DNA from: Escherichia virus TH34
Sequence record: MT446407.1
Length of the DNA: 64,000 bases
Reading direction: 5' to 3' (one strand)
Notes under the pieces: generated by a model
What the model was told of the DNA's origin: nothing
The model's database searches: none
What the model saw: the letters and a program-made list of their open reading frames with translations, nothing else
Program-made: the position numbers and the translations under genes
Part shown: positions 38 through 5,675 of the stretch, piece by piece
Layout: every line of letters begins with the position of its first letter
How positions within the stretch are numbered: the stretch's first letter is position 1

Positions 38-1795
38 CTACCTTAAGAACGTTTCACTATTTGTTCCAGTGTTCATTGTGGCTGAGTTGCCTAATCCAAG
101 ATTAGTTCTTGCTCCAGCTGCATTAGTTGCACCTGTACCACCACTAGCAACAGGGACGTTATTTAGTGTAGAGATGTTCCCTAATCCAAGATTAGTTCTT
201 GCTCCAGCTGCATTAGTTGCACCTGTACCACCACTAGCAACAGGGACGTTATTTAGTGTAGAGATGTTCCCTAATCCAAGATTAGTTCTTGCTCCAGCTG
301 CATTAGTTGCACCTGTACCACCCTGAGAAACAGAGAGAGCAGTCGTAAGTCCTGTAATAGAGGTTATGTCTGAGTTTGCACCAGAAGAAGCAGCTCCTAG
401 AGTAGTTCTAGAAATAGTAACATTACCTGTAGCTTCATCAGGAGCTTGATTGTTAACAGTAACCACATAAGGTTTCTGAGATTGAACAGACCCGTCATAT
501 TGAGAATCTTTGTCAGCGTCTGGAGCACGAATAGCTTCCCCACCAGTCCAATCTGGAAGTCGGATCCTGATGAAGTTGCTAGAGTCTGCATCAGTAAAAC
601 CATCAGCCAGTTTACCCCAAGAGAAATACTGCTTAGCACCGGACTGCCATTCAGTTTCACTAACTACTGGTAATTGGCCACTGACCAAAGATGGACCTAA
701 ATCTAAAGCACTTTCCTTAGAAACCAAGCGACCATCAGCAGGTAGTACACCGGGGTAAGAGATATTCTTAGCTGGGTCATATGGGAACATAACCATCTCA
801 CCGAGATACAAAGAAGGGTTCCCTGTAGGAATAGTAATATCAATGTTGCCAGATGAGTCAGGAGGTCGTGAGTTAACTGTAATAATACGACCTTCGGTTT
901 TAGCTGGAATTAGTGTTTTATTAGCTGAAACGGTGTAGAAAACATATTGAGTGTTTTCCCAAACCATAACAGATTCGCCTGTTTGACGATATTGAGCATT
1001 TGCATCAGCATCAGCTTTAGTTTGATATATTTTAATAGGTTTATCGAATTTGTCATTAATCTCTTGACGACTATATTGAGCAACGTTCAGAACGTTACCT
1101 AGGCCAACAACGTTCTTATCAAGAGTAAGGGCTACATCTCCAGTTTGTTCTGGACCATCATTAACTTTGATAGAACGAACAGAAGGGATTAAGTTAGCGA
1201 TATTACTGAGGCTGGTTTTATACACTTTGTTGTCATCAGGGTCAACATAAAAACCAATATCCCCTGCTTCTGGAACCCCCGTTGGGGCAGTGTTTAAGTC
1301 GGTTACAGAACCATCACGACCCGGCTCACCTTCAGGAATACCTAGCTTGATTTCACCAGTTTGGTTATTGAAAGAACCAGTAGCTTCAGAACCCGGAGGA
1401 AGAGTGGTCACTGTAACTTTCATAGCCAACAGGATATCAAGTTGCTGATCGACTTCAATCAGTTTTTGGTTAATCAAAGCAATAGAGTTGTTAGCATTAG
1501 CAACAGCTGCGTTAGTCTGTGCAATCAGTTGCATCAGTCGAGCATCTTGATCTTTAAAGTCCTGTTTCAGATCTTCAATATCTTGCTGTAATAGAATACC
1601 TTGCTTATAAAGTTTCTCTACTTCAGCAACAAGATCATCAACTGTACCAAACTTAGACTCAGCTAAAAGTGCCCAATATTTAGAATCAGCAGCATACTCA
1701 GCTGCTTGTTTATAGGCTCCGATAGAGCCTTCTGTTGCACCAAATTGGCCTACATTATTTACTGTAGTAGGTTCTTGGTTGTTATAAACGATCAT
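38..1795 (-). CDS. tail fibre / tail spike-like protein
   Basis: 585-aa ORF; heptad-rich coiled-coil N-terminus; Gly/Thr/Asn-rich C-terminus with 2.6 tandem copies of GGTGATNAAGARTNLGLGNISTLNNVPVAS; sits in structural block. Confidence 0.55.
   Translation of the reverse strand: MIVYNNQEPTTVNNVGQFGATEGSIGAYKQAAEYAADSKYWALLAESKFGTVDDLVAEVEKLYKQGILLQQDIEDLKQDFKDQDARLMQLIAQTNAAVANANNSIALINQKLIEVDQQLDILLAMKVTVTTLPPGSEATGSFNNQTGEIKLGIPEGEPGRDGSVTDLNTAPTGVPEAGDIGFYVDPDDNKVYKTSLSNIANLIPSVRSIKVNDGPEQTGDVALTLDKNVVGLGNVLNVAQYSRQEINDKFDKPIKIYQTKADADANAQYRQTGESVMVWENTQYVFYTVSANKTLIPAKTEGRIITVNSRPPDSSGNIDITIPTGNPSLYLGEMVMFPYDPAKNISYPGVLPADGRLVSKESALDLGPSLVSGQLPVVSETEWQSGAKQYFSWGKLADGFTDADSSNFIRIRLPDWTGGEAIRAPDADKDSQYDGSVQSQKPYVVTVNNQAPDEATGNVTISRTTLGAASSGANSDITSITGLTTALSVSQGGTGATNAAGARTNLGLGNISTLNNVPVASGGTGATNAAGARTNLGLGNISTLNNVPVASGGTGATNAAGARTNLGLGNSATMNTGTNSETFLR
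86..322. repeat. in-frame 90-bp tandem repeat, about 2.6 copies, inside the tail fibre gene
   Basis: near-identical units starting at about 90, 180 and 270 (cctaatccaagattagttcttgctccagctgcattagttgcacctgtaccacc...). Confidence 0.85.
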
Positions 1796-1804
1796 ATGTT
1801 CTCC

Positions 1805-2551
1805 TTATCTGTATCTACGAATGCCGTACACTTCTCGTGAGCTATTAAGACGGCTAATAGTATTAGGGATTACTAGAGGGGAACCTGAGTATTCTGCTTT
1901 CTTACTCTGCTCCACAATCTCGTCAAGGATTGCTTTACCAAGTGCTGACCACTTTTGAACTCCATTATCATCTTGAACGAATAAAGAAGCATGACGCAGA
2001 GTAAAATATAGAAGCAGCTCAGGAGCAATAGTTAGAATAGCACTGGTATCTTCATCAGAGTGGAACTCCGGTGGGTCTGCATAATAACTTAAAACTACAG
2101 CATTCTCAGCAGGGATTTCAGGTGCTCCATCATCAGGATAAACAGGAGTATCTGCATCAATTAGAGGGTAGAACATAAACCGACTACCTAAACGAGCAAA
2201 AACAACTTCCCCTTGATTCCAATTGGATGGGTTGACTGAGTTATTTCTCTTCAACCAGTCAAGTTCTTCAGGAGAGGTTACTCTGAACATCATTCCATTT
2301 GAAGCTCTCATAATCCACTGTGCTTCTAAAAAGTCAGGAGGGATAAAAGCAATACCATCCTTGATATCTAAATATACTTCTTTTTCCAGAGGAGGGATTC
2401 GTAAGTTACGATAGATTTCTTTCTCTGCAAAGTTAATAAAGTTTGGAATCTGATTAACAAATTCATCATCATCCCTATCGGCCCAGAGCGACACAGCCTT
2501 TTTAAGCCAGCCATAGGTATTGATAGGGTAAGCCACTTCAGGCATCGCCAT
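1805..2551 (-). CDS. hypothetical virion protein (position suggests head-tail joining or tail component)
   Basis: 248-aa ORF between tail fibre and capsid genes; no recognisable motif. Confidence 0.4.
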   Translation of the reverse strand: MAMPEVAYPINTYGWLKKAVSLWADRDDDEFVNQIPNFINFAEKEIYRNLRIPPLEKEVYLDIKDGIAFIPPDFLEAQWIMRASNGMMFRVTSPEELDWLKRNNSVNPSNWNQGEVVFARLGSRFMFYPLIDADTPVYPDDGAPEIPAENAVVLSYYADPPEFHSDEDTSAILTIAPELLLYFTLRHASLFVQDDNGVQKWSALGKAILDEIVEQSKKAEYSGSPLVIPNTISRLNSSREVYGIRRYR

Positions 2552-2611
2552 AATTGTGTCCTCCTAGTTGTGTATAGACAAAGAGAATACATTACACTTG
2601 GTCGTGTATAG

Positions 2612-2645
2612 GTCTTAAAGCAAGAAAAGCCGCCCGAAGGCAGCT
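2612..2645 (-). terminator. rho-independent terminator after the capsid/Ig gene (minus strand)
   Basis: minus-strand hairpin gctgcc-ttcg-ggcggc followed by ttttcttgcttt. Confidence 0.5.
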
Positions 2646-2855
2646 TAGGTTTATGCACCAGACTTGACAATATAAGTACGGAATATTGCGGAGGCTGGGT
2701 TAGTTCTGATTGAGATTTTAGTATCTTCACTGGTAATCGGAGCTGATAAAGTGATTGTCAACACCTGACCTGTTAAATCAACTTCCATCAAACCTACATC
2801 AGTGCCTTCTGTGTCATAAGTCAAAGCACCAACTACCGAACCCTGAGGTACACCA

Positions 2856-3515
2856 TCAAAAACGGACTACACCCGGTTGAGTGGAGTCAGTGATTGTGAT
2901 AGAGTCTGTAGCAAGAGGGTTCTCTGGAGCACCTACGACCACAGTGTTAGAAACAGTAGAAGCAACAAGGCCCGTAAGTTTCGGAGTAGCTGTGATTGTA
3001 GTGGTTGCTGTTACAGAAGTTTGAGTTTTATGAGTTGCTTTAACTGTAACTGTACCAGATGTGTTATCACCTAGGGTAAAAACTCCTGATGGGTTAAAAG
3101 ACCCCGCTGATGGAGGAGTTATCAAAAACTCATAATCAGAGAACGTTGAGTTAGTTGCTGTAAACATTGTGGTGAACGCTGTAGTGCTACCACCGATCTT
3201 ACCGGTGATTGGACCTCTTGTTACAATAGTAGCGGGCTCAAAAACAGATTGGACTGTAGCAGTACCTGTCTTACCACCTTTAGTTGCCGTAATAGTTGCT
3301 GGGGTTTCTTGCGACGCACTCGGTGCAGTATATAGCCCAGAAACAGAAACAGCCCCACCGCCTTCAACGGACCAACTAAATCCGGTTGTGCTTGTGGAGC
3401 CGTCGCTCATTTCTGCTGTAGCTGTAAACTGCTGAGTAGCCCCCGTCGGAAGGCTTGCAACCGACGAAGGACTAACAGTTACGGTATCTACTGTTACGCC
3501 GCCACTACCTTTCCC
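2856..3515 (-). CDS. Ig-like (BIG2-type) C-terminal extension of the major capsid protein, probably made by -1 frameshift
   Basis: about 220 aa Thr/Ser/Gly-rich with Ig-like repeats; reading frame is -1 relative to the capsid ORF and overlaps its 3' end; first in-frame ATG lies inside the capsid gene. Confidence 0.5.
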   Translation of the reverse strand, partial: GKGSGGVTVDTVTVSPSSVASLPTGATQQFTATAEMSDGSTSTTGFSWSVEGGGAVSVSGLYTAPSASQETPATITATKGGKTGTATVQSVFEPATIVTRGPITGKIGGSTTAFTTMFTATNSTFSDYEFLITPPSAGSFNPSGVFTLGDNTSGTVTVKATHKTQTSVTATTTITATPKLTGLVASTVSNTVVVGAPENPLATDSITITDSTQPGVVRF

Positions 3516-4555
3516 GCAGCAGTGAACAGAACACCGGAAGCGTATGGGTTGCGGTGACGCAGACCAACTTCCATTTCGATCATCCACTTCTCGTAAGAAC
3601 CGTCTTTAGCCAGTTCAGTACGCTTCGGTGCACGAAGAACCATCTGAGTCCAATCAGAGCTACGGAAGAAGTAAACTGCATCAGTAGGCATCCAACGGTT
3701 AACGATGATTTTATAGCTCTGACCCAGCGGGTCGGTGATGCTATTAACTTCGTAGATGAATTGTTTAGTGTTCTCAAAGATACGCTGACGAGAACCAACA
3801 GAGTTTTCCTGAAGCTTAGCGAAAACGCTAGCGTGAGCAGGGTTAATCATGATGATATCAGCTTCAGAACCTGCGGTATACAGCTGAAGAGTCATATCAA
3901 AGATATCTGCTTCATCAAAGCCTACGTTAGTGGTAGGGTTAGATGCGTTCTGTGCAACTTTAACAGTTACTGCACCGGTATCCGGGTCAGCAGGACCGTT
4001 CTTAGTCTTATCAACAACGCTACCAGACAGACCGCCATGAGCACACAGGAACTGGAAAGCACCAGTCTTACGAGCTGCATGAGTATCATTCAGACCAGCC
4101 AGAGCAGGATCAGCTGCTGAGTTAGTTAGATACTGGTCAGCCAGAACGTCGGTACGAGCCTGACCGGACAGCAAGATTTTCTCGAGGTCACGTTTAATCT
4201 CTTTACCTTTCTTCTCCAGCTGATACATCAGTTCACGACCACGACCGTAGTTAGCGGTGGTGTTAGCAGTATCAGAAACACGAACTACTTTACGCAGGAT
4301 CTGAGTTACGTTAGATTTGATAACAGTCGGTTGCATTTCACCGTCATCAGCGCGAGAGCCTTCAACGTGTGCGTTGTTAGCATCAACACTTGCCAGTGCA
4401 TCGGTCTGCCAGCTGAAAATAGTCTGGTTGATAGACTCTTTACCAGTCATAGACACAAACGGAGTATCTTGCGGAGAGAGGACAGAAATCCAGTTAGCAA
4501 AAGAAAGTTTTTTACCGTTCTGGTCGTAAGATACAAATAAAGTTGGATTTGCCAT
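3494..4555 (-). CDS. major capsid protein
   Basis: 353-aa ORF immediately downstream of the scaffold gene, upstream of the Ig-like extension and a terminator; strong RBS; assignment by position and size. Confidence 0.6.
   Translation of the reverse strand: MANPTLFVSYDQNGKKLSFANWISVLSPQDTPFVSMTGKESINQTIFSWQTDALASVDANNAHVEGSRADDGEMQPTVIKSNVTQILRKVVRVSDTANTTANYGRGRELMYQLEKKGKEIKRDLEKILLSGQARTDVLADQYLTNSAADPALAGLNDTHAARKTGAFQFLCAHGGLSGSVVDKTKNGPADPDTGAVTVKVAQNASNPTTNVGFDEADIFDMTLQLYTAGSEADIIMINPAHASVFAKLQENSVGSRQRIFENTKQFIYEVNSITDPLGQSYKIIVNRWMPTDAVYFFRSSDWTQMVLRAPKRTELAKDGSYEKWMIEMEVGLRHRNPYASGVLFTAAGKVVAA
3509..3515 (-). other. candidate -1 slippery heptamer G_GGA_AAG (minus-strand sense)
   Basis: capsid frame reads gcG GGA AAG gta gtg gcg gcg TAA; -1 frame reads GGG AAA GGT AGT GGC ... 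continuing into the Ig-like ORF. Confidence 0.5.
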
Positions 4556-4595
4556 GTTATGTTAGCTCCTATACTATTTAAAAATAATTTGTCGA

Positions 4596-5675
4596 TTAAT
4601 CTACGAGATACTTAAATGCATCTTCGTGACGAATGCGACCCTCTGAAAATGCCTTGGCAACCTTAGCGTTGTCTGGCGTATTGGAAGTACGAGACTTAGA
4701 AGAGTCGGACTTCACAACCTTACGTGGAGAACCCGGACGTTTAATCTTAGCCATTACCTGTTGCTTACCTTTATCAAATTGGTATGCTTTATGCAAAGCT
4801 AGGAAAATAGACGGACGATTCTCTTTCAAGACTTCTTCTTCTGTAGCACCGAGATCAATTGCATATTGCATCAGATTCTGATAAACACTGTCATCCCAAT
4901 TAGGAATTTCACGTTTCAATACATTAACACATTCGGTACATTTAGCTTGGAAGGCTTGCTGTTCTTTTGCTGCTGCATCTTGCTTGATCTTAACTTGCGC
5001 TTGTTCAAGCTGCTGACGACGAGCAGTGTACTTCTCTAAAAAGCGTTTGTTTTCAACATAGGCTTGTGGATCTTCAACTGCTAGCTTGTCCCAATCAAAA
5101 CCGTTATAATCTTCAATTACTCGGTCTGCTTCTAAGGACGCTAATTCTAATACATCCGCTAAACCACCTACACGCTCTTCAAAAGCTTCAACATGACGCT
5201 GAAGAACAGCTTCCCGTTCAGTCATATCGGAGCCAGTAACATAGCCATTTGATAACTCTTCAATAGTCATCTCACGACCATCAGGAAGGGTGATAACAGT
5301 TTCATAATCTACGTCGAAAGCATCACCTTCTTCGTATTCACTGTCAGTAGAATCATCGTGATCTACATCACTTGGTTCTTCATCTTCAACAACTTCATCA
5401 GAGTCGTCGTCTGAATCACCTTCATCGTCTTCTCCTTCCTCTTCTGAATCATCCCATCCTTCTTCATCTTCGAACGTGAGTTCATCACCCTTACCAAGAA
5501 GGTCGGAATCAAAGTCAAAGTTATCTCCAGTATCTTCTGGAAACTCACTGTCAATGTCCACTTCTGGTTCTTGTTCAGATTCTAATCGACTTAGGTCTTC
5601 TTTAAAAGATCCTTTCAAGTCATCAAGTTGGAGGAATGATTTAAAATCGTTTGGGTCTAAAAATTCATTTGCCAT
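4596..5675 (-). CDS. scaffolding protein
   Basis: 359 aa; highly acidic D/E-rich central part and helical C-terminus; located between portal and capsid genes. Confidence 0.55.
   Translation of the reverse strand: MANEFLDPNDFKSFLQLDDLKGSFKEDLSRLESEQEPEVDIDSEFPEDTGDNFDFDSDLLGKGDELTFEDEEGWDDSEEEGEDDEGDSDDDSDEVVEDEEPSDVDHDDSTDSEYEEGDAFDVDYETVITLPDGREMTIEELSNGYVTGSDMTEREAVLQRHVEAFEERVGGLADVLELASLEADRVIEDYNGFDWDKLAVEDPQAYVENKRFLEKYTARRQQLEQAQVKIKQDAAAKEQQAFQAKCTECVNVLKREIPNWDDSVYQNLMQYAIDLGATEEEVLKENRPSIFLALHKAYQFDKGKQQVMAKIKRPGSPRKVVKSDSSKSRTSNTPDNAKVAKAFSEGRIRHEDAFKYLVD

Follow-up and report, generated by a model that had tools for sequence, protein, structure and literature searches.

The window analysed here, a stretch of 64,000 nucleotides of Escherichia virus TH34 (MT446407.1), comes from a Kuravirus-like coliphage of the phiEco32/SU10 group, and its major capsid gene raises the question of how an Ig-like reading frame that overlaps the 3' end of that gene comes to be translated. 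A preliminary description had proposed that a programmed -1 frameshift fuses the major capsid protein (MCP) to the Ig-like sequence. This reading is supported by the phased heptamer, the missing start and ribosome-binding site, the Ig fold, the conservation in relatives and the existence of in-frame fusions, and it is very probable that an MCP-Ig fusion is made by programmed -1 ribosomal frameshifting in this Kuravirus-like major capsid gene. The feature is already known, having been published for the phiEco32, SU10, Paul and YF01 group, and is therefore rated as ordinary; the current understanding of the frameshift mechanism is unchanged by the TH34 findings. The details that are new here are an extra T that truncates the TH34 extension, a weak conserved hairpin and a relationship to Big_2 that lacks a direct match. 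The features are listed in Table 1.

Table 1. Positions of the features of the TH34 capsid locus within the window.
Feature	Position	Strand	Details
Shine-Dalgarno (SD) AGGAG of major capsid gene	4566..4570	-	upstream sequence AGTATAGGAGCTAACATAAC-ATG; anti-SD duplex -6.5 kcal/mol
MCP gene, zero frame	3494..4555	-	353 aa, 38.7 kDa; ATG 4555, stop TAA 3496..3494
Slippery heptamer G_GGA_AAG	3509..3515	-	X_XXY_YYZ phase in capsid frame, six codons before stop
-1 frame extension after slip	2856..3509	-	217 aa (3509..2859), 21.5 kDa; stop TGA 2858..2856
Candidate stimulatory hairpin	3470..3500	-	GGC-(G)-UAACAGU / ACUGUUA-GUC, 10-nt loop, 8 nt after heptamer
Second hairpin	3440..3470	-	CCUUCGUCGG / CCGACGGGGG, about 38 nt after heptamer
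In-frame ATG used by gene callers for 184-aa 'Ig protein'	3408..3410	-	without SD, unconserved, inside first Ig domain
T5 run, one extra T relative to Bas86 (TTTT) and Paul (GTTT)	2858..2862	-	makes premature ...VVRF-TGA stop
Orphaned last 68 codons of ancestral extension	2651..2857	-	DGVPQGSVVGAL...RTYIVKSGA-TAA, now in zero frame
Intrinsic terminator	2627..2646	-	AAGCTGCCTTCGGGCGGCTT and T-rich tail; closes capsid/extension transcription unit

The short product is a typical capsid protein of its group. The 353-aa reading frame ending at 3494, as first described, was confirmed; it ends in ...FTAAGKVVAA-TAA and matches the Pfam family SU10_MCP (PF17236) over residues 12-344 with 265 bits (E 1e-78), which passes the gathering cut-off of 24.1 bits, as well as the PHROG 1328 major head protein. 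The AGGAG motif upstream of its ATG is the sole ribosome-binding site for both the short and the long products. The heptamer at 3509-3515 was also found as described, in phase with the MCP frame, and the sequence statements of the preliminary description hold throughout. The motif GGGAAAG is not enriched in the window, where it occurs 8 times against 6.6 expected, and apart from the copy at 3515..3509 none of the 8 is phased within a real gene. Reading of the sequence upstream of the heptamer revealed no SD-like motif. The length of the -1 reading frame was dropped as a test against chance, since a neighbouring gene commonly lies in that frame and the length is then uninformative: 7 of 43 long open frames (at least 150 codons) precede a -1 frame, presumably that of the next gene, which stays open for at least 176 codons. 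Taken singly, the heptamer and the downstream reading frame are both unremarkable; what stands above chance is the combination of a unique phased copy, its conservation in relatives and an Ig domain that starts at the junction.

With regard to the extension, no stop interrupts the -1 frame between a point 36 codons before the capsid stop and its own TGA, and the overlapping frame of about 220 aa that had been proposed corresponds to 217 aa when counted from the slip site. The predicted slip product, MCP residues 1-349 plus these 217 aa, has 566 aa and 59.9 kDa. The extension consists of a GSGG linker, two Ig-like beta-sandwiches at residues 7-86 and 94-175, and, at its end, a C-terminal domain interrupted after 40 residues. 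It matches the PHROG 13745 Ig domain protein (1.4e-54), and 47 homologues were found. The AF2 model has a pLDDT of 90, with values above 95 in the two beta-sandwich domains and of 57-70 in the last 40 residues, and its best PDB match in Foldseek was to the Ig-like repeats of the Leptospira LigA variable region (8gyr, E 2.7e-10, TM 0.52-0.62), with further matches to Big_2-CBM56 structures. A Pfam search of the 217-aa extension returned no family, Big_2 included, even at E<=10, so that the 'BIG2-type' label given to it has no direct Pfam match; it stands indirectly, through the LigA-like fold and through homologous first domains that match Big_2 (PF02368) barely above the 22.8 cut-off, with 23.4 bits in Paul and 25 bits in phiEco32. 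In other relatives (P59, PJNS034 and LAh_8) the Pfam matches of the -1 products are to I-set/Ig_3. The Ig domain of the -1 products of relatives begins at residues 1-8, aligned to Pfam profile positions 1-2.

The position of this domain bears on whether the Ig-like frame might be a separate gene with its own start (ATG 3410, giving 184 aa, or GTG 3587), whose product would attach to the capsid as a non-covalent decoration. A stand-alone 'Ig domain containing protein' is indeed annotated in databases and in several GenBank records, and the SU10 cryo-EM paper handles gp10 as a separate protein (PMC9509320). However, anti-SD duplex energies revealed no ribosome-binding site at any candidate start in the -1 frame, with values of +1.2 kcal/mol for ATG 3410 and, at best, -3.4 kcal/mol for GTG 3587, compared with -5.9 to -10.2 kcal/mol in seven real genes nearby. 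The equivalent of ATG 3410 is missing in phiEco32, TH42, KBNP1711 and Bas93, and the annotated starts of the Ig frame vary between phages. The claim that the frame has no credible independent start was thus borne out. Furthermore, the first Ig domain starts 7 residues past the junction, upstream of all candidate start codons in the extension, and since it begins there, initiation at the first Met (Met34) would remove three of its strands, which the AF2 model places at residues 7-34. The homologue P0001, which starts at the equivalent Met, has a poorly modelled first domain (pLDDT 38-69). In-frame MCP-Ig fusions in relatives, and the detection of the fusion by mass spectrometry in SU10 (PMC4281155) and Privateer (PMC7881722), also speak against a separate gene, which we hold to be very improbable. 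The 184-aa 'Ig protein' of automatic gene calling is best regarded as an artefact; the correct annotation is a single MCP CDS joined across the -1 shift at 3509..3515. The fusion is expected to give GSGGVTVDTVTVSPSSVASLPTGATQQFTATAE peptides, as opposed to the free Ig protein of ~18 kDa that would start at the Met of ATG 3410.

In all 21 Kuravirus-like loci, which include isolates, viral contigs and metagenome assemblies, the heptamer is in phase and the MCP stop is conserved 5-7 codons past it. In a scan of 20 loci with a pattern that permitted synonymous variants of the heptamer codons, exactly GCG GGA AAG was found in all 20, and the codons after the heptamer vary. This recurrence of the two-frame arrangement and of the MCP stop in the 21 loci argues against a sequencing or assembly error in a gene that would truly be one continuous MCP-Ig frame, as does the dominance of the short 38.5-kDa MCP in SU10 (PMC4281155); homopolymer indels do occur in the same reading frame, and an error of this kind at the junction is nevertheless scarcely credible. 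Phased sites are also found further afield. Privateervirus (Proteus phage Privateer/P59 and Cronobacter phage CsaP_009), with an MCP 57% identical to that of TH34, has the same heptamer in phase and a -1 frame with Ig domains, and differs from TH34 in that the stop comes 2 codons after the heptamer and I-set and Big_2 domains make up the extension. The distant relative PJNS034 (43% MCP identity) carries a phased C_CCA_AAA and a -1 frame of 130 aa.

The conserved geometry likewise bears on the possibility that the long form arises from transcriptional slippage, that is, stuttering of the RNA polymerase, rather than from ribosomal slippage. In bacteria, the transcriptional slippage known so far depends on homopolymer runs longer than the short G3 and A3 runs of this site, typically at least six A or T, and nothing specific favours it here. 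The X_XXY_YYZ arrangement is conserved and is equally phased in the C_CCA_AAA of PJNS034, and such a phased geometry is required by tandem tRNA re-pairing and irrelevant to polymerase stuttering, which makes a transcriptional origin extremely unlikely.

The TH34 locus corresponds to phiEco32 gp11/gp12, SU10 gp9/gp10, Paul CPT_Paul_009/010 and YF01 gp8, in which the same gene carries GGGAAAG 5-7 codons before its stop and an extension in the -1 frame. The MCPs of phiEco32, Paul and YF01 are 94-95% identical to that of TH34, and Kuravirus-like phages share with it the junction ...FTAAGK followed by G(S)GGVTVD, with extensions that are Ig-like throughout. The Paul GenBank record contains a joined CDS with the note 'Frameshift at GGGAAAG'. 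Mass spectrometry of SU10 found forms of 38.5 and 55.4 kDa, of which the smaller is dominant (PMC4281155), and that of Privateer detected a minor long capsid protein (PMC7881722). The YF01 paper describes the capsid frameshift for the whole group (PMC9965538), and the SU10, Privateer and YF01 papers cite Savalia 2008 for the frameshift in phiEco32 (PMC4281155, PMC7881722, PMC9965538). The SU10 cryo-EM study reports no extra capsid density (PMC9509320) and, as stated in PMC9965538, was also without a long-form band.

A second route to the same kind of product exists within the clade. The 7-11-like phages SE131 (gp028), GAP52 (GAP52_011) and BUCT695 have a second MCP gene, in which, as in TH34, an SU10-type MCP is covalently joined to one or more Big_2 domains. 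Unlike in TH34, the junction arose by gene duplication and in-frame fusion, and there is neither a slippery heptamer nor a -1 frame. The clade thus arrives at an MCP-Ig product either by frameshifting or by duplicating the MCP gene and fusing one copy in frame.

Outside the clade, Levin et al. are said to have found in 1993 that the G/GT tail assembly chaperone of phage lambda uses the heptamer G_GGA_AAG. Lambda G/GT is like TH34 in its low-level, C-terminally extended product, but the gene encodes a tail chaperone, and its product, whose extension is not of the Ig type, does not form part of the virion. In gene 10A/10B of T7 and T3, ribosomes shift to the -1 frame close to the 3' end of the MCP gene and thereby make a minor, longer capsid subunit, with different slippery sequences and a short extension. 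This capsid frameshift is cited as a precedent in PMC7881722, and the frequencies quoted in PMC9965538 are about 10% for T7 gene 10 and about 3.5% for lambda G/GT. By analogy with the figures quoted for these two phages, the slippage efficiency in TH34 would be a few per cent.

The preliminary description had called for a search for a stimulatory RNA structure after the heptamer, and the outcome was mixed. Such elements, a hairpin or pseudoknot 5-9 nt downstream or an SD-like sequence upstream, are frequent at -1 sites without being required. A weak, bulged hairpin of 10 bp (about -5 to -10 kcal/mol) includes the capsid stop codon and begins 8 nt downstream of the heptamer, compared with 5 nt in phiEco32. 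Its stem is invariant across 11 sequences, which makes a covariation test impossible. In TH34, 92% of the neighbouring segments are less stable than the 40-nt segment that starts at +5, and in 4 of 5 lineages the +5..+44 segment falls within the top 1-8% for stability among its neighbours (Fisher p = 0.0009); the whole 116-nt region, on the other hand, folds no better than shuffles (z = -0.36). A stimulation of slipping by this hairpin is only suggestive. When taken jointly with the +1 slip discussed below, a repeated gain of a stimulatory stem-loop 5-8 nt downstream, in four lineages that differ in its sequence, is very unlikely. Other candidate structures were discarded. The second hairpin has one covarying pair (G-C, U-A, A-U) and lies too far from the heptamer for a classical stimulator. 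RNAalifold favours a long hairpin from about 29 nt downstream with compensatory changes in two pairs only (G-C/U-A/A-U and G-C/U-G), which is not claimed here, its covariation being 0.130 compared with 0.141 when the partners are slid by -1. A stem-loop enclosing the slip site has been proposed for SU10 (PMC4281155) and is rejected as a stimulator because a ribosome that decodes the heptamer must already have melted it.

The downstream end of the extension is where TH34 departs from other Kuravirus-like phages, in which the modular extension differs in length. Past the MCP stop it ranges from 172 to 540 aa across loci, with 174 aa in phiEco32, 212 in TH34, 267 in TH42, 454 in Bas86 and 540 in Paul. 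Judged from the sequence, the ancestral gene ran on past position 2856, since a 1-nt insertion private to TH34 cuts the extension short, removing the last 68 aa of a C-terminal domain of the Bas86/Paul type. The tail reads through in frame in 8 of 8 homologous proteins that have it, and in the DNA of Bas86 and Paul; the AF2 model of the tail domain of P0001 has a pLDDT of 29-68 and gives no confident fold. An independent Logan re-assembly of SRR11772964 has the same T5 run. As the extension is truncated within its last domain, the TH34 long form may be partly misfolded or being lost.

Accordingly, it is possible, though we regard it as doubtful, that the slip site works while the TH34 extension is decaying and dispensable, its long form being functionally impaired or unstable. 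Besides the T5 run and its recurrence in the re-assembly, the low pLDDT of the last 40 model residues and the varying length across loci are consistent with decay, as is an indel near the start of the extension in the deposited SU10 sequence, where a stop follows 13 codons past the heptamer. The truncation of the extension by indels in two deposited genomes, those of SU10 and TH34, suggests that it may be dispensable in culture. By contrast, the two Ig-like domains before the truncation are intact and confidently folded, and the orphaned 68 codons, in which the list of reading frames shows a 57-aa frame at 2651..2824, are intact, free of stops and close to Bas86, so that the T insertion would be either very recent or a read-level homopolymer error.

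Another fate of the truncated frame, a +1 'shifty-stop' slip at the private CGU_UUU_UGA after the -1 slip, would require two recoding events on one mRNA and is highly improbable. In such a slip, tRNA-Phe would re-pair perfectly, exchanging one UUU of the T5 run for another and exactly restoring the ancestral ...VVRF-DGVPQG... together with the final 68 aa. Nested products of three sizes, 353, 566 and 634 aa (38.7, 59.9 and 66.9 kDa), would result, a species of ~67 kDa or the peptide VVRFDGVPQGSVVGALTY would be expected, and the insertion would be tolerated through phenotypic suppression.

Under the preferred reading, a single -1 frameshift, ribosomes would initiate at the capsid ATG and the majority would stop at the capsid TAA to give the 353-aa, HK97-fold MCP. 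A minority would slip back by one base on G_GGA_AAG, with tRNA-Gly re-pairing from GGA to GGG and tRNA-Lys from AAG to AAA, a step that the weak conserved hairpin may stimulate, and would continue in the -1 frame to produce MCP 1-349 followed by GSGG, the two Ig-like domains and the C-terminal segment. This long form would co-assemble as a minor capsid subunit and probably display its Ig-like domains on the surface of the prolate head, where they would presumably adhere weakly to glycans of the cell surface or of mucus, an idea that PMC9965538 attributes to Fraser et al. 2006. A search between the capsid stop and the extension revealed no terminator; the terminator comes after the ancestral end of the extension, and the GenBank record of phage Paul has a terminator annotated at the corresponding position.

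The phage is a Kuravirus-like E. coli podophage (Gordonclarkvirinae, phiEco32/SU10 group) whose structural genes are carried on the minus strand. The preliminary description had proposed a frameshift fusion between its major capsid protein (MCP) and an Ig-like domain, and its statements on the capsid ORF end, the slippery heptamer and the -1 ORF were all correct. The MCP ends in ...FTAAGKVVAA-TAA, and its final codons, GCU GCG GGA AAG GUA GUG GCG GCG UAA, place the heptamer in X_XXY_YYZ phase, with the stop six codons later. Past a -1 slip the frame reads GGG AAA GGU AGU GGC GGC GUA ACA... and stays open for a 217-aa extension, so that the junction ...FTAAGK followed by GSGGVTVDTVTVSPSS... would yield a fusion of 566 aa (349 + 217) and 59.9 kDa, compared with 38.7 kDa for the MCP.

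Features of the window discussed in the text
Feature	Coordinates	Strand	Details
Portal gene		minus	Pfam SU10_portal
Scaffold gene		minus	
MCP gene	4555..3494	minus	353 aa; Pfam SU10_MCP, E 1e-78
Slippery heptamer	3515..3509	minus	G_GGA_AAG
First hairpin	3500..3470	minus	GGC-(G)-UAACAGU / ACUGUUA-GUC
Second hairpin	3470..3440	minus	
Called start of Ig ORF	3410		ATG (Met34 of extension)
T5 run	2862..2858	minus	one extra T
Stop of -1 ORF	2858..2856	minus	TGA
Leftover ancestral codons	2857..2654	minus	68 codons, intact, next frame
Stop of leftover frame	2653..2651	minus	TAA, directly before terminator
Intrinsic terminator	2646..2627	minus	strong
Place of Bas86 HNH gene	2551-2651		~100 nt with terminator
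Adaptor gene		minus	Pfam SU10_adaptor
Repeat-containing ORF	38-1795	minus	585 aa
Tandem repeat	86-322		90 bp, 2.6 copies, 99% identity
tRNA-Arg gene	23393-23468	plus	anticodon TCT; single

Neither the heptamer nor the -1 ORF is unusual alone, and it is their combination that counts. GGGAAAG occurs 8 times in the 64 kb window against 6.6 expected, and long -1 frame ORFs beyond a gene's stop are frequent there because neighbouring genes often occupy that frame. Only the MCP copy is phased inside a real ORF, the remaining seven sitting in open frames of 6-23 codons.

The site is conserved among relatives. The 21 Kuravirus-like loci, including the window (MCP identity 93-100%; drawn from GenBank, IMG/VR, metagenomes and Logan), have G_GGA_AAG 5-7 codons before the stop, and the -1 ORF runs 172-540 aa beyond it in 20 of them, with a stop after 13 codons in the deposited SU10. 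With a pattern that permitted synonymous variants, GCG GGA AAG was exact in all 20 loci scanned, while the codons after it differ (VVAA, VAA, AGA, VEAA, LDPQQ). The same heptamer stands 2 codons before the stop in Privateervirus (P59, CsaP_009; MCP identity 57%), with a 168-aa -1 ORF and an I-set domain from residue 2, and PJNS034 (43%) has C_CCA_AAA and a 130-aa -1 ORF with an Ig domain from residue 1. Aeromonas LAh_8-like loci (59-66%; L008-L011, ~4905-4925) encode Ig domains (88-169 aa) in a -1 ORF past the MCP stop with only the non-canonical G_GUA_AAG (A_AAG), which may be a site of single-tRNA-Lys slippage; a GC-rich tetraloop hairpin lies 6 nt 3' of it in L008-L010. The 7-11-like phages (SE131, GAP52, BUCT695; 55-57%) have no slip site and instead carry a second MCP gene, which on checking is an in-frame Big_2 fusion, whereas Kuravirus-like phages use the frameshift. 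The in-frame fusions of the 7-11-like phages give independent evidence that selection favours a covalent MCP-Ig protein. Two MCP paralogues occur in 7-11-like, GAP52 and BUCT695-type phages and four on one IMG/VR contig (L017 4549-5778, L018 3501-5258, L019 4529-5626, L012, and L013 with four tandem MCP matches).

The extension matches PHROG 13745 ('Ig domain containing protein', 1.4e-54) and has 47 homologues, several with precomputed matches to Big_2, the Pfam bacterial Ig-like family. AlphaFold2, with a 27-sequence alignment, gave a mean pLDDT of 90 and two beta-sandwich domains (residues 7-86 and 94-175, pLDDT >95). In the PDB the model most closely resembles the Ig-like repeats of Leptospira LigA (8gyr, E 2.7e-10, TM 0.52-0.62), ahead of intimin, NCAM and Big_2-CBM56 structures. 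Pfam Big_2 had no match to the window's extension, even at E<=10; Paul and phiEco32 do match it in the homologous first domain, at residues 7-84 (profile 2-75) and 6-77 respectively, with scores of 23.4 and 25 bits that barely exceed the cut-off of 22.8 bits. Therefore, of the original Ig-like (BIG2-type) assignment, the first part is solid and the second supported only indirectly. The Ig-like module is real and begins at the MCP junction.

The absence of a credible start or RBS for the Ig ORF, likewise proposed at the outset, was borne out. By anti-SD duplex energies, no Shine-Dalgarno sequence precedes any of the five ATG, GTG or TTG codons in this frame: their values lie between +1.5 and -3.4 kcal/mol, whereas those of seven real genes nearby lie between -5.9 and -10.2. 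The ATG chosen by gene callers, giving the 184-aa 'protein' P0002, is missing from phiEco32, TH42, KBNP1711 and Bas93 in the sequence comparison, and other internal starts were chosen in other phages. First-domain strands at residues 7-13, 25-27 and 29-34 of the AlphaFold2 model precede Met34, so initiation there would remove them; in the model of the homologue P0001, which begins at Met34, this domain has a pLDDT of 38-69. No terminator was found in the window between the MCP stop and the extension, and a strong one lies downstream. Stand-alone calls of this ORF include P0002, P0015, P0019 and P0024 and GenBank phi32_12, SU10_010 and Bas86_0006, with automatic internal starts varying by phage (an ATG, or a GTG that yields 'MASLL...' or 'MTVSP...'); among the GenBank records examined, a joined CDS is annotated in Paul only. 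With a conserved heptamer, no Shine-Dalgarno sequence and Ig sequence from the junction onwards, programmed -1 frameshifting producing a minor MCP-Ig fusion is very probably the correct explanation.

This frameshift is already known for the phiEco32/SU10 group, and its finding here is therefore a correct rediscovery. GenBank MN045231 (Paul) has a joined MCP CDS noted as 'Frameshift at GGGAAAG', adding 'Frameshift in PhiEco32 major capsid protein product as well (PMID 18294652)'. Mirzaei et al. 2014 described GGGAAAG slippage joining SU10 gp9 to Ig-like gp10, with 38.5 and 55.4 kDa forms in mass spectrometry (PMC4281155), and the Privateer paper reported a frameshift signal and a minor capsid protein found by mass spectrometry (PMC7881722). 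The YF01 paper described the joined product and the event for the entire phage group, quoting slippage of ~3.5% in lambda and ~10% in T3/T7 (PMC9965538).

As to a stimulatory structure 5-9 nt downstream, for which a check had been suggested, the 116 nt from the heptamer fold no better than shuffles (z = -0.36). A weak, bulged 10-bp hairpin containing the MCP stop codon begins 8 nt past the heptamer (5 nt in phiEco32). Its stem is unchanged in 11 distinct sequences, so covariation gives neither support nor refutation. A second hairpin, ~38 nt past the heptamer, has one pair of three Watson-Crick types (G-C, U-A, A-U), and its covariation score is not above that of a register slid by -1; this pair joins the synonymous third base of a Ser codon to position 2 of a variable P/Q/L/E codon. 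In a test with preset parameters, the 40 nt starting at +5 exceeded 92-99% of the segments within 2.5 kb in stability. This applied to the six Kuravirus-like loci tested, to Privateervirus and PJNS034, and to two of the three Aeromonas-type loci; with one locus per lineage, this held in four of five lineages (Fisher p = 0.0009). A weak downstream stem-loop is plausible but unproven as a stimulator. The identical heptamer of lambda G/GT is not known to need a downstream stem-loop.

The extension was predicted at about 220 aa; its length of 217 aa agrees, and its end at 2856 reflects an extra T. Homologous extensions continue past ...QPGVVRF into DGVPQGSVVGAL...RTYIVKSGA, and in the DNA alignment the window has T5 where Bas86 has TTTT and Paul GTTT, producing CGU UUU UGA and the early stop ...VVRF-TGA. 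The last 40 residues have low model confidence, as expected from a severed domain, and the homologue model gave no defined fold for the complete tail domain. Over 5,555 nt, T5 run included, the window shows no difference from an independent Logan re-assembly of SRR11772964, so the insertion is not an artefact of one assembly; it may be a read-level homopolymer sequencing error, or a mutation that truncated the extension recently, a counterpart of the loss in SU10. With low probability, the mutation is suppressed phenotypically: a +1 slip at U_UUU_UGA would restore the exact ancestral protein (634 aa, 66.9 kDa). The premature stop noted in SU10 (PMC9965538) was confirmed in KM044272 (L038 1391-1450), where the -1 frame ends 13 codons past the heptamer (GKGGGVTVDTVYC, then stop). 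There, ...TVSPASLAS, the Ig-domain start in relatives, is found in the zero (MCP) frame after the stop; an indel therefore disrupts this extension also, which fits the missing density for the Ig protein in SU10 cryo-EM (PMC9509320).

Bas86 carries a gene for an HNH endonuclease (L002 4169-4681) between its capsid extension and its adaptor gene; in its place the window has just a short stretch. The tandem repeat encodes a recurring ...GGTGATNAAGARTNLGLGNISTLNNVPVAS... motif, which lies at the C-terminal end of the 585-aa ORF adjoining the adaptor gene; the Bas86 counterpart of this ORF carries the annotation tail fiber protein.
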